Shown here in pieces: positions 45,797 through 57,817 of a DNA stretch of 64,000 bases. Origin of the DNA: an uncultured Candidatus Rokubacteria bacterium. Its GTDB lineage: Bacteria; Methylomirabilota; Methylomirabilia; Rokubacteriales; CSP1-6. Location of the stretch: NCBI GenBank assembly GCA_963758635.1, contig CAVWWD010000006.1, forward strand, positions 360,180 through 424,179, in the 5' to 3' direction. Within the stretch, counting starts at the first letter, position 1; every line of letters starts with the position of its first letter. The position numbers and the translations under genes are program-made. The notes under the pieces are model-generated. The model searched no databases. It saw only the letters and a program-made list of their open reading frames with translations, and was not told the origin of the DNA.

Positions 45797-45800
<4 letters not shown>

Positions 45801-46231
45801 GGACGACCCGGTCTCACGACCTCGAATCCGAGGGCCTCCGCCGCCCGGGCCTGCGCCACATCAGTCGTCATCAGCCGACGCACGTCCAGCTCTTCCATCG
45901 CGGCCACGTGCAGCCGGTCGAGCGAGCGGACGTGTGAGCGGGCCAACGACTTCTGCTGCCTCAGGGCGACGTTGAAGACGGTGCCGGGTAGCGTGACGAA
46001 CCTGAAGGGTTCGATCTCTCGCAGACGCTCGATCCGATCCAGATACGAGCGATACCTGCGCTCGCCGAGCAAGCCGCCGAGCCTCCGAGCGCGAAGCTGC
46101 ACGACCGCCTCGAGCTGGACCAGGACGGACACGACCACGACGGGCTCGCGCGCCACGGCACGGTCGACCGCCTCGCTGTCGGGCTCGTCGATGAGAAGCT
46201 TCAGGAAGCAGCTGCTGTCGAGGTAGATCAC
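45797..46231 (-). CDS. vapC: PIN-domain (VapC) toxin
   Basis: IYLDSS, RSLDRLHVAA, LMTTD. Confidence 0.88.
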
Positions 46232-46244
46232 GCCGGCCCGCGCG

Positions 46245-46502
46245 TCAGAGCGTGTGGTCCTCCCGGTCGCCGGCCAGCGCGGCGTCCACCCAGCGCTCCA
46301 CCTTCCCGCCGCTGGCCTTCCGCCGCCACCTCGCATGCGCGACGGGATCGAACCGCGGGCGAGGCTTCCTGCTCTCCGTGATTCGAACGAGCCTGGCCAC
46401 CGGAGCGCCGTCCCTGGTGACCACGACTTCGCCTTCTCGCCGGAGCAGCGCCTCGGCGGCGGGCCATCTCTGCCTCAGATCCCGCACGCTGATGGTCTTC
46501 AT
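46245..46502 (-). CDS. Phd/YefM-type antitoxin
   Basis: MKTISVRDLR...EVVVTRDGAPVARLV. Confidence 0.88.
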   Translation of the reverse strand: MKTISVRDLRQRWPAAEALLRREGEVVVTRDGAPVARLVRITESRKPRPRFDPVAHARWRRKASGGKVERWVDAALAGDREDHTL

Positions 46503-46562
46503 GGGCGAAGATTAACATGTTTCACACCAGGTGCTCTGCCCACGCGGAGAGCGTCGCGGTCG

Positions 46563-47003
46563 TCATCGGCCGGGCACCACCACGGCCAACCCTCGATCGC
46601 CGAAGGCCTTGAAATCGTCGGCATTGAAGGTCAGCAGCGTCACGTCCCGCTCCCGGAGGGCGCACTCGGCAATCACCGCGTCGTATGTACGGCCACCCGC
46701 GATGCCGGCGCTGGCAAGGCGGCGCACGAGGTCGCGGTACGCCCGCTCGTCGAGGGCGATCACCTGTCCGTGCTCCATGAAGCTTCCCTCGATCAACTCC
46801 AGGGCGCTCGCCGGCGACACGCGGTGCGGCGGCGGCAGGCGGGTCAGCACCGCATAGGATTCGACCGCGGCGGGGGCCGCGATCAGCATGGGCTCGGCGG
46901 CACGCAGGCGCCGGTCGATCTCTCCGATCGCCTCGCGGTGGCGCTCGTGCCACGCACAGACCGCGGCCACCATGCAGCTCGTATCGGGAAGAAACCCCGG
47001 CAT
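46563..47003 (-). CDS. vapC: PIN-domain (VapC) toxin
   Basis: LPDTSC, ESYAVLTR, GRTYDAVIA, LLTFNADDF. Confidence 0.9.
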   Translation of the reverse strand: MPGFLPDTSCMVAAVCAWHERHREAIGEIDRRLRAAEPMLIAAPAAVESYAVLTRLPPPHRVSPASALELIEGSFMEHGQVIALDERAYRDLVRRLASAGIAGGRTYDAVIAECALRERDVTLLTFNADDFKAFGDRGLAVVVPGR

Positions 47004-47010
47004 GCGACGG

Positions 47011-47274
47011 CTAGGCTCGACGGGTCCGGCTCCGCCGAAGATCCTCGCGCGTTCGCTCCACCGCCTCGGACGTGAGGGCAGGGACCTTGGCCCCCGCCAC
47101 CGCGACGAGGAGCCGCCCCTTTCGCACCAGACGTACTGACAACGGCGCCGCCTCGATCTCGATCCGGCCCTCGCGGAGCCTGATATCGAGCGGCATTCCC
47201 GGCTTCAAGCCCGCTTCACGCCGGATCTCCTTCGGAATCACGAGGCGTCCGGCCTGATCGATGGTCGTTTTCAT
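47011..47274 (-). CDS. AbrB/MazE/SpoVT-family antitoxin
   Basis: MKTTIDQAGRLVIPKEIRREAGLKPG. Confidence 0.9.
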   Translation of the reverse strand: MKTTIDQAGRLVIPKEIRREAGLKPGMPLDIRLREGRIEIEAAPLSVRLVRKGRLLVAVAGAKVPALTSEAVERTREDLRRSRTRRA

Positions 47275-47318: not shown

Positions 47319-48536
47319 TCACACGATGCCGCGGCGGGCGAGGGCGGCGAGGTCGTCCTTGGTGAGGCCGAGCCGCTCGCAGTAGATCTCCTCGTTGTGT
47401 TCGCCGACCCGCGCCGGCCCCGCGCTCGTCACGGCGCCGGGCGTGGCCGAGAGCTTCGGCACCACGCCGGGCATCCACACCGGGCGGCCGTCCGGGCCCG
47501 GGACGGAGATCAGGTTCTCGCGCGCTCGCATGTGCTCGTCCTCGAAGATGTCGCGGGCGCTGTTCACGCGCGAGCACGGAACCTCGGCGGCCTCGAGCCG
47601 GCTCAGCGCGTCGGCGGCGTCGAGGCCGCCCACCCACGCCTGCACGCGCCCGTCCAGGTCGACGCGGCGGCGGATGCGGTCGTCCATCGAGGCGAACTCG
47701 GCGCGGAGCGCGGGGTCGCCCATGGCATCCACGGTGAGGCGCTCGAACATGCGGTCGTTGGTGCATGCGACGGCGATCCACCCGCCGTCCCGGGTCTGGT
47801 AGTGGTTGTGCGGCACCACGTACTCCGTGCCCGAGCCGATGCGCTCGCGCACCTTGCCGAGCGCCGCGTACACCGGGATCAGCTCGTCGAGCATCCGCAT
47901 CATCGGCTCGTAGAGCGCGACGTCCACCACCTGCCCCTGGCCCGTGCGGTGCCGGCTCTGGACGGCGGCGAGCGCGCCGAAGGCGCCCATCACGCCGGCC
48001 AGGTAGTCGGGAATGGTGGGCGTGCCCGGCGACACCGGCGGCCGGTCGGGGTGGCCCGAGATGTAGCTCGCCCCGCTCACCGCGCCGGCGATGCGCCCGA
48101 AGCCCGGCCGCTCCCGGCTGGGCCCGGTCTGGCCGAAGGCCGAGATGCGCACCATCACCAGCCGCGGGTTGATCCGCGACAGCTCGTCCCAGCCGAGGTT
48201 CCACTTCTCCATCGTGCCGGGACGGAAGTTCTCGGCCAGGATGTCCGCCTGCGCCGCCAGGCGCGTGATCAGCGCCTGGCCGTCGGGCTCGCGAAGGTTG
48301 CAGGTGATGGACTTCTTGTTCCGCGACTCGACCAGCCACATGTAGGAGACACCGTCCGCGGCCTTGTGGCCGAGCCGCCGGAGGTCGTCGCCCCGTCCCG
48401 GCTGCTCGACCTTGATGACCTCGGCGCCCAGCTCCCCCAGGAGCGTGCAGCAGAAGGGCGCGGCGACGAACGTGGCGAGGTCCAGCGCCACGAGGCCCTC
48501 GAGAGCCCCGTGGCGCTCGGTTCCGTCTAGGACCAC
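47319..48536 (-). CDS. CaiB/BaiF class III CoA-transferase
   Basis: LEGLVALDL, LGAEVIKVEQP, RNKKS, ENFRPG, SAFGQTGP. Confidence 0.92.
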   Translation of the reverse strand: MVLDGTERHGALEGLVALDLATFVAAPFCCTLLGELGAEVIKVEQPGRGDDLRRLGHKAADGVSYMWLVESRNKKSITCNLREPDGQALITRLAAQADILAENFRPGTMEKWNLGWDELSRINPRLVMVRISAFGQTGPSRERPGFGRIAGAVSGASYISGHPDRPPVSPGTPTIPDYLAGVMGAFGALAAVQSRHRTGQGQVVDVALYEPMMRMLDELIPVYAALGKVRERIGSGTEYVVPHNHYQTRDGGWIAVACTNDRMFERLTVDAMGDPALRAEFASMDDRIRRRVDLDGRVQAWVGGLDAADALSRLEAAEVPCSRVNSARDIFEDEHMRARENLISVPGPDGRPVWMPGVVPKLSATPGAVTSAGPARVGEHNEEIYCERLGLTKDDLAALARRGIV

Positions 48537-49300
48537 ACGTCCCGCGGGATCGGCAGCCCGTCGTAGTCCGCGTCGGTCAGCGGCGCGTCGGCGCGGACGC
48601 CCATCTGGTCGAGGAACCAGTAGATCTGGCGCAGGTGCTGGGCGGCGTGCCAGGTGGTGCGCTCCATGAACTCGTGCGTCGTCTGCGGCCCGTAGTAGGT
48701 GCTGACGCTGCCGTCGCACCAGCCGGGCCGCGTCACGTAGTCGGCGATCCGCCGGCGCACCGTCTCGCCGTACGCGGCGACGGCCTCGCCGTCGGCCATG
48801 TCCGCGGGCGCGCGCTCCTCGAAGACGTTCGCGCCCAGGTGCCCCTGCTCGCGCGTGTCCACGAACCCCGCGCTCAGGCGGAAGACATGGTAGCCGAGCT
48901 GGTGCACGCTCCGGTCGCGCCCGGGCTTCTTCATGCCGAGGTGCTCGCGCGGGATCTGCCGGAGCGCGCGCTGGGTGCCGGCGAGCACGCGGTCGAGCCG
49001 CCGCGCCAGCTCGTCGGGCAGCAGCGGATCCCGCTCGCGCCACTCCACGCCGACCAGCGCGGCCAGCGCCTTCGGGTTCCACCCGTGCACCACGCGCCCA
49101 TCGAAGATGGTGGCAGGCACGCGGTCGATGCCGTGAGCCTGAAGGTCACGCTTGCGCTCGGGCTCGGCCTCGACGTCGAAGCCGTCGAACGACACTCCCC
49201 ATGACGAAAGCAACTCTTTCGTCTTGGCGCAGGAGCTTCAGCCCTGCCGGTAGTAGACCCGCGCCTTCTCCTCCAGCCTCGCCGACGTGCTCTGGGTCAT
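48527..49300 (-). CDS. Selenoprotein: glutaredoxin-like UxxC domain fused to a DinB/S-transferase-like domain
   Basis: AAGGAG RBS, ATG 49300, MTQSTSARLEEKARVYYRQG-TGA(49238-49240)-SSCAKTKELL in frame with ORF 48527-49213; RVPA/DG thioredoxin-fold motif; GYH and WHAAQH histidines. Confidence 0.85.
49195..49235 (-). promoter_or_regulatory. Bacterial SECIS-like hairpin
   Basis: Perfect 8-bp stem GACGAAAG-AGUUG-CUUUCGUC starting 14 nt after UGA; lower pairs CCA/UGG and CUCC/GGAG. Confidence 0.75.
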
Positions 49301-49405
49301 CGCGGTCTCCTTCGCTCCGGGGTGTGGCGGCGGTCGCCGTCCTCGACTATACGCCAGGTCTGCGAGCGACCGGACGCGCGGCGGCTGTTCAAGCTCGACG
49401 CGCTC

Positions 49406-49661
49406 GCGCGCTCATTCCAGGGGCGGCGGGTGGGGGCCCGGGGTCGCGGGTGCTGCCCTCAGTCGCTGTGTCCGACCCGTGCGCTCAACAGCGCGCAGGC
49501 TGTGGCGGTGGGTGGGGGCCCGGGGTCGAGGGGTGCTTCCCCTCCAACCGGCATCGTACCCAGCGCGCCCGGATGGAGCCCAGTCCCAGCGGGGCAGCGC
49601 ACGCGTGCGACGTCGCCCCGCGACCCCGGGCCCCCACCCGCCGCCCCTGGAATGAGCGCGC
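49406..49661. repeat. Repeat family A (MITE/REP-like): partial and full copy bounded by perfect 45-bp inverted repeats
   Basis: 49406-49450 is the exact reverse complement of 49617-49661; the core recurs at 51709, 52001 and 57661. Confidence 0.9.
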
Positions 49662-49723
49662 AAGCTTGACGCCCCTCCTGCCGGGGCGAGGCGGCGACGC
49701 GCCCGCTATGGTAGCCTCCGTCC

Positions 49724-51708: not shown

Positions 51709-51870
51709 GCGCTCACTCCACGGGCGGCGGGCGGGGGCCTCCGGGGTCGCGGGGTGACGTCGCACGCGTGCGCTGCCCCGCTGGGACTGGGCTCCATCCG
51801 GGCGCTCGGGGTCCGACGCCGGTTGGAGGGGAAGCACCCCTCGACCCCGGAGGCCCCCCCCACCGCCCAC
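51709..51870 (+). repeat. Repeat family A copy
   Basis: Near-identical to 57661-57817. Confidence 0.9.
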
Positions 51871-51967: not shown

Positions 51968-52163
51968 GTGTCCGATCATGCAATCAACAGCGCGGCTGCC
52001 GTGGCGGTGGGTGGGGGCCCGGGGTCGAGGGGTGCTTCCCCTCCAACGGGCATCGGACCCAGCGCGCCCGGATGGAGCCCAGTCCCAGCGGGGCAGCGCA
52101 CGCGTGCAACGTCGCCCCGCGACCCCGGGCCCCCACCCGCCGCCCCTGGAATGAGCGCGCAAG
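51968..52163 (-). repeat. Repeat family A copy, inverted relative to 51709
   Basis: Near-identical to 49468-49664. Confidence 0.9.
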
Positions 52164-57630: not shown

Positions 57631-57660
57631 GCGTTGTCTCCTTGTTGGGTGTCTCGCTGC

Positions 57661-57817
57661 GCGCTCATTCCAGGGGTGGCGGGTGGGGGCCCGGGGTCGC
57701 GGGGTGACGTCGCACGCGTGCGCTGCCCCGCTGGGACTGGGCTCCATCCGGGCGCGCGGGGTCCGATGCCGGTTGGAGGGGAAGCACCCCGCGACCCCGG
57801 GCCCCCACCCGCCACCC
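57661..57817 (+). repeat. Repeat family A copy
   Basis: Near-identical to 51709-51870; internal inverted repeat GGGTGGGGGCCCGGGGTCG. Confidence 0.9.

Follow-up and report, generated by a model that had tools for sequence, protein, structure and literature searches.

Sec-containing glutaredoxins (Sec, selenocysteine; PF00462, UxxC; Table 1 of PMC13188914) and the Uxx-star, NrdH and YruB families (NF041212, TIGR02194, TIGR02196) are small, stand-alone proteins. The DinB/YfiT superfamily includes BstA/YfiT (1rxq, 5wk0), mycothiol S-transferase (MST; 8f5v), mycothiol-dependent maleylpyruvate isomerase (MDMPI; 2nsg) and DR0053 (6iz2). Most of its studied members are dimers of largely unknown function, according to the accessible part of PMC10693628, and in the accessible part of PMC5815605 nothing but a His triad is invariant among the metal-dependent Bacillus subtilis Bst transferases. 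We analyzed a 64,000-nucleotide stretch (the window) of an uncultured Candidatus Rokubacteria bacterium (assembly GCA_963758635.1, contig CAVWWD010000006.1, positions 360,180 to 424,179) and describe a gene at 48527-49300 in which a glutaredoxin-like and a DinB domain are joined. Unlike the Sec-glutaredoxin, Uxx-star, NrdH and YruB proteins, its product has the redox domain, with the motif USSC, fused to a 165-residue DinB region, and its NCBIfam scores fall far under the cut-offs. Unlike the DinB/YfiT proteins, to which it is just 8-17% identical, it comes with a redox domain and a GLPxP..W tail, and its hosts lack the standard glutathione (GSH), bacillithiol (BSH) and mycothiol (MSH) markers searched. 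From sequence comparison we regard it as nearly certain that this is a selenoprotein gene, with the in-frame TGA at 49240-49238 decoded as Sec.

The open reading frame (ORF) list starts this gene at 49213, as the original prediction had stated, with a TTG; this codon is Leu30 and lies inside the loop of a SECIS-type hairpin (SECIS, Sec insertion sequence). The prediction had placed the true start at an ATG at 49300 behind an AAGGAG site, with TGA as codon 21 of 257. Both elements are present, the ATG in frame with the TGA, and with TGA read as U the frame is open over 257 codons up to a TAG at 48529-48527, with this single TGA inside. The context is ...RVYYRQG-TGA-SSCAKTKELL, giving the motif G-U-S-S-C, and the predicted motifs RVPA (P62), GYH (H138) and WHAAQH (H218, H222) each occur in the translated frame. 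The third-position GC content (GC3) of codons 1-20 is 1.0, compared with 0.97 for the remainder of the gene. Most of 29 relatives have an ATG or GTG 10-21 codons ahead of the TGA, with a purine-rich site like AAGGAG before it. Independent short-read contigs from three studies cover the TGA, and no difference listed for them falls on it (the comparison takes in 4 of 24 listed runs, all of them contigs). X1 record 8 and X16 record 23 show 0 differences from the gene; X4 record 31 shows 3, of which the two listed lie at 49259 and 49265, off the TGA.

Patterns that leave out the codon itself found 186 relatives in genome_contigs; in the best 80 of these the codon-21 column holds TGA without exception (80 of 80 loci), and never TAA or TAG. 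Depositors' labels for these records include Rokubacteria, Binatia, Terriglobia and Desulfobacteraceae; the nearest relatives of the gene are Ca. Methylomirabilota/Rokubacteria. Because the same column is TGA throughout and the independent contigs agree, the codon is neither chance nor a sequencing error. A hand count over 201 class genomes gave one TGA in 103 of the 104 listed full-length matches, a count that takes in the unpublished genomes G129 and G065 and is unaffected in its outcome when both are dropped. The TGA position was confirmed in 29 of 29 class loci, some of whose genomes are shared with the 80 loci, and in four further loci. The exception among the 104 is a second copy in G192 (L219, G192:C139:25657-26397), which has TGC, is nested in the Sec clade and retains the hairpin; the same genome also has a TGA copy. 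This copy probably reflects a recent Sec-to-Cys change. The 120 database homologues listed, out of 1250 found, all start past residue 21 (107 at residue 36), so the anticipated truncation by gene callers is borne out.

The hairpin agrees with the bacterial SECIS consensus as given in the accessible part of PMC13188914 (loop of 3-9 nt with G in the initial two positions, stem of 4-16 bp, spacing of 16-37 nt, minimum free energy at most -7.5): an 8-bp upper stem (49223-49216 / 49210-49203) closes the 5-nt loop AGUUG (49215-49211) 22 nt past the UGA, with an energy of -16.6 kcal/mol (z -2.8). Over 54 distinct Sec sequences 91.6% of stem cells pair, compared with 34-57% in slid registers, and stem cells changed on both sides number 25 versus 11.4 for shuffled data, in which 0 of 500 runs reach 25. 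In the same register, which is defined on the Sec form, 7.4 of 8 pairs form in the 54 Sec sequences versus 2.9 in 67 Cys sequences, and the mean energy of the region is -14.6 for Sec forms (GC 0.60) versus -3.7 for Cys forms (GC 0.52). Five distant Sec forms fold a hairpin at the same place (-6.4 to -11.8), as does the Cys revertant. All AAA, TTG and TCA codons of the gene lie within the hairpin, where GC3 is 0.73 versus 0.97. Across the sequences compared, the hairpin is confined to TGA forms plus the one Cys revertant.

The genome (G000) has selA, selB, selC and selD, which the original prediction had asked to be sought, and the tRNA-Sec on contig C10 has the anticodon TCA. A selA match was found in 174 of the 201 class genomes. 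The prediction had named three observations that would speak against it, namely TGC or TGT in reads, homologues without Cys or Sec at this position and a genome without Sec machinery, and none of these was made.

Homologues indeed have Cys or TGA at this column. Among the best 150 of 1858 profile hits, 53 of the 55 representatives covering the column have CxxC; 63 others start just past it and reach the end, as would truncated Sec forms, judging from their protein starts. A further 89 loci have TGC/TGT in 74 cases and TGA in 6, and 9 are uninformative. Plasmids of Roseomonas, Caballeronia, Variovorax, Burkholderia and Rhizobium carry named Cys forms (14 records), which go under 'DinB family' or 'glutaredoxin domain-containing' or have no annotation. 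The predicted hidden UxxC-DinB fusion is real as an architecture, but the fusion is not peculiar to Sec users, since Cys forms are widespread and sit in RefSeq. A quick tree of 73 hand-picked rows requires 5 Sec/Cys changes, at least 3 of them forced by well-supported branches; being unrooted, it does not give their direction. One Cys-form homologue (P0197, 721 aa) has about 470 extra N-terminal residues, a part that presumably resembles an MmgE/PrpD protein and could be a real fusion or read-through.

Profile and fold searches confirm the two-domain architecture. Pfam places glutaredoxin at residues 15-71 above cut-off, and DinB_2 at 102-226 below it (E 0.006, 17.4 versus a gathering threshold of 24.8 bits); PF12867 is carried by 4 of the 120 close database homologues. 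Every NCBIfam model stays below its cut-off (best 41.1 versus 88.55; Uxx_star 28.6 versus 66) and none extends over both domains, and 10 Cys homologues likewise do not reach the Grx and Uxx-star cut-offs. A structure model built with 23 sequences has a mean predicted local distance difference test (pLDDT) value of 86 and a predicted template modelling (pTM) score of 0.75. In this model the first domain is predicted to adopt a thioredoxin fold with C/UxxC and the cis-Pro position, and the second the four-helix bundle of the DinB/YfiT (S-transferase-like, STL) superfamily; the pTM exceeds the residue share of the larger domain, which hints at fixed domain packing. In fold searches, residues 11-86 match NrdH-type redoxins, the closest redox folds, and 91-241 match DinB/YfiT bundles including YfiT/BstA, MST and maleylpyruvate isomerase; none of the 50 chains shown covers both.

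Conserved over 429 rows are G20, U/C21, C24, P62, the PxRxR loop, H138, E213, R214, W217, H218, Q221, H222, R224, Q225 and GLPxP..W. Both redox positions (98%), P62 (99%), H138 (98%), H218 (99%) and H222 (100%) are kept jointly down to about 25% identity. The spacing of the His triad fits H67/H160/H164 of BstA as reported in the accessible part of PMC5815605 (for the Bst metal triad see also PMC10950700), and the three His are predicted to bind a divalent metal. The fold and triad together suggest a thiol S-transferase function for the DinB domain. The C-terminal motif GLPxPxxxW couples weakly to E213/W217/Q221. A DinB-only paralogue in the same genome (L025, G000:C8:716839-717303) is 38% identical and lacks the glutaredoxin domain, His218 and His222; partial matches resembling it occur in several relatives. 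The whole genome has 19 Pfam DinB_2 matches, 18 of them above cut-off, a large DinB repertoire given that the standard small-thiol markers searched are lacking there.

We tentatively propose that the protein might well be a self-contained reductase or thiol transferase, its own Sec replacing a small-molecule thiol. By the established pathway, SelB would almost certainly bind the hairpin and insert Sec at the UGA. The DinB metal site could then bind and polarise an electrophilic or sulfur-linked organic substrate, which the Sec21 selenolate would attack. Cys24 would resolve the adduct, releasing the reduced product and leaving an Se-S bond that thioredoxin reductase or a similar reductant may reset. 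NrdH-type domains are reduced by thioredoxin reductase. Because Cys forms are common, Sec would be a rate enhancer rather than a requirement; because the redox residues and His triad are conserved jointly, a coupled redox cycle is favoured over isomerisation.

Several results weigh against parts of this account. Only 2 stem pairs of the hairpin covary, with Lys/Arg28 linked both to the codon for Leu31 and to Ser/Ala32; shuffles give as many (469 of 500), and the rows are kin. Frameshifts split selA and selD in this assembly; since several ordinary genes of the window look split too and relatives have intact selA, these are probably assembly errors. At least 12 listed TGA-form genomes have no selA match. 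Re-testing five of these gave selB and tRNA-Sec in two (one being the unpublished G065) and neither in the other three, which are fragmented assemblies of 220-250 contigs. These frameshifts and the three genomes that gave no Sec genes, together with the short form being what databases list, are what speaks for TGA as a true stop or error, the product then being a truncated 222-228 aa protein or a pseudogene. We find this scarcely credible: coding sequence upstream of the TGA is conserved, Cys homologues exist, the hairpin follows the TGA forms and the one revertant, the codon is invariably TGA in the 80 loci and in independent contigs, and both strand 1 and the active site would be missing from the short form. 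On the side of function, inter-domain couplings are near noise (the best, R49-Q134, ranks 28 and Y16-S131 ranks 34), and neighbours differ by lineage, with none common to the family among the most frequent clusters scanned, so they indicate no substrate. The genome also has an MshC-like gene, below cut-off. Proteobacteria generally make glutathione; as they carry Cys forms, the absence of small thiols cannot account for the family as a whole.

Other functions can be weighed against a self-contained reductase. The protein could be a tethered de-thiolase, in which a small thiol, its conjugate or its mixed disulfide is bound by the DinB domain, much as BstA and MST do, and reduced by the seleno-glutaredoxin; it would then resemble a mycoredoxin or bacilliredoxin that carries a binding module of its own. 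In characterised DinB enzymes the metal is where small thiols bind (accessible part of PMC10950700), an anionic thiol could be held by the conserved R128, R130, R214 and R224, there is a weak match to mycoredoxin TIGR02200, and an MshC-like second gene is present in 3 of 21 host genomes. This is nevertheless rather unlikely, as gshB, bshC and mshC gave nothing above cut-off in those 21 genomes (gshF and ergothioneine genes were outside the search) and the family spans hosts with differing thiols. We consider improbable a role in metal or metalloid handling, with the triad binding an ion (Cu, Hg, As or Se species) that the UxxC pair reduces or relays: a His triad with CxxC and weak matches to ArsC/Spx-type models would suit it, but the fold fits NrdH better than ArsC, and metal-resistance or transport genes do not recur among the scanned neighbour clusters. 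An isomerase like the mycothiol-dependent maleylpyruvate enzyme, its Sec adding reversibly to a cis-enone with no net redox change, would have no need of a resolving Cys that is 98% conserved, and no gentisate or homogentisate genes were found among the scanned clusters; we give it little probability. Very little, too, attaches to an Spx-like redox sensor without catalysis, whose DinB domain would serve as the output by binding a ligand or dimerising. With K-x-K-E-F-L after CSSC/CTSC, the sequence resembles Spx, and profile matches to Spx chains reach E ~1e-8; these cover residues 11-53 only, whereas NrdH/Grx matches are stronger and cover the whole domain, and full conservation of the active-site-like triad suggests catalysis.

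Directly behind the stop lies a CoA-transferase frame, and upstream are a repeat element and divergent FAD-oxidoreductase and SDR genes (Table 1). The repeat (~160-260 bp, with terminal inverted arms of 49 nt that are 98% complementary) has 38 matches (at least 120 nt, at least 80% identity) on 9 contigs and looks like a miniature inverted-repeat transposable element or a repetitive extragenic palindromic-type element. Beside relatives, an enoyl-CoA hydratase gene recurs on the same strand in 35 of 81 regions, an FGE-sulfatase gene on the opposite strand in 32 and an aminotransferase gene in 28. A conserved operon was ruled out, since neither the gene's closest loci nor the window's region itself has these neighbours. 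We gave up an EgtB-like reading (DinB plus FGE), the FGE gene being in convergent orientation and often 1-3 kb distant. Neighbours of Cys forms are mixed catabolic and transport genes. A second CysRS-like gene of this genome (L224, G000:C9:433786-435015) scores 392 bits against the MshC cut-off of 485 and may make an unknown cysteine-containing thiol; no recognisable mycothiol genes were found among the genome's ORFs scanned. Elsewhere in the window (45797-47250), a PIN-domain gene (46563-47003, PF01850) and a similar ORF (45797-46336), each beside a small ORF, are probably two toxin-antitoxin pairs, judging by this pairing.

Table 1. Features of the selenoprotein locus (window positions) and of Sec machinery elsewhere in the genome (genome:contig:positions).
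Feature	Position	Strand	Basis or remark
Full gene, 257 aa, UxxC glutaredoxin-like domain fused to DinB domain	48527..49300	-	Sequence, profile and fold searches
Shine-Dalgarno AAGGAG, 6 nt ahead of ATG 49300	49307..49312	-	Sequence
In-frame TGA, codon 21, predicted Sec, attacking residue of U-S-S-C	49238..49240	-	TGA/Cys conservation
Cys24, predicted resolving cysteine	49229..49231	-	98% conserved over 429 rows
SECIS-type hairpin, bacterial	49199..49227	-	Folding, pairing conservation, criteria in accessible part of PMC13188914
NrdH/glutaredoxin-like domain, residues 11-86, cis-Pro position P62 (49117-49115)	49043..49270	-	
DinB/YfiT four-helix bundle, residues 91-241, PxRxR loop 126-130 conserved	48578..49030	-	
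His138; His218; His222	48889-48887; 48649-48647; 48637-48635	-	Predicted metal triad
Family-specific C-terminal motif GLPxPxxxW, residues 248-256	48533..48559	-	88-99% conserved
selC-selA-selB cluster	G000:C10:234150-239096		Profile matches above cut-off
selD-type gene	G000:C3:51092-52010		Above cut-off
Family III CoA-transferase frame, directly behind stop	47322..48521	-	PF02515 E 1.7e-113; adjacency not kept in relatives
Intergenic repeat directly upstream of gene	49402-49665; more copies near 51741-51860, 51979-52163, 57658-57816		

Among the closest known proteins are the Cys-form glutaredoxin-DinB proteins of RefSeq (WP_207446294.1 of Roseomonas marmotae, WP_244817409.1 of Caballeronia, WP_162571355.1 of Variovorax), which share architecture, motifs and family with this one and differ in having Cys for Sec, no hairpin and generic names only; literature searches found no characterisation of them. 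Table 1 of PMC13188914 (2026, 119 prokaryotic selenoprotein families) includes Sec-glutaredoxin and several Grx-like families, none containing DinB, and 'DinB' is absent from the text of that paper and of the BSepDB paper (PMC13326102). The literature searches found no paper on a Sec glutaredoxin-DinB fusion; Haft and Tolstoy (2025), whose families are covered here through that Table 1 and NCBIfam 20.0 only, and Deng et al. (2026) were outside their coverage and may bear on it. Both domains and the UxxC chemistry are known, and it is their combination as a selenoprotein that appears to be uncatalogued. The study of Deng et al. 2026 (Cell Rep) reportedly predicts 63 selenoproteins in a Methylomirabilota genome, which may include the glutaredoxin-DinB family.

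Most of the sampled genomes of an abundant soil order carry this apparently uncatalogued family, which is systematically truncated in databases and ties selenium to the DinB superfamily, for which few natural substrates are known. A DinB domain with its own redox pair could be trapped by a resolving-Cys mutant, making substrate discovery directly testable, and Cys forms are at hand in cultured Proteobacteria. The repeated Sec/Cys switches, with a hairpin at the same place in each Sec form, offer a clean case for SECIS origin within coding sequence. Canonical glutathione S-transferases (GSTs; a thioredoxin plus a helical domain) follow the same two-part logic and give many Foldseek matches. GST chains superpose on the Grx part only (~75-85 residues; whole-chain TM ~0.27, root-mean-square deviation 13-16), and the second domain does not have the GST C-terminal all-helical fold; because the helical domain here is DinB, the protein would be a GST analogue and not a GST. 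With considerable doubt, we suggest that it may be the first Sec member of the DinB/S-transferase-like superfamily and a new catalytic design, a GST analogue assembled from other parts in which a tethered Sec replaces glutathione, mycothiol or bacillithiol as nucleophile at the DinB metal site, letting marker-lacking soil Rokubacteria reductively cleave or detoxify organic electrophiles, with selenium recruited several times independently.
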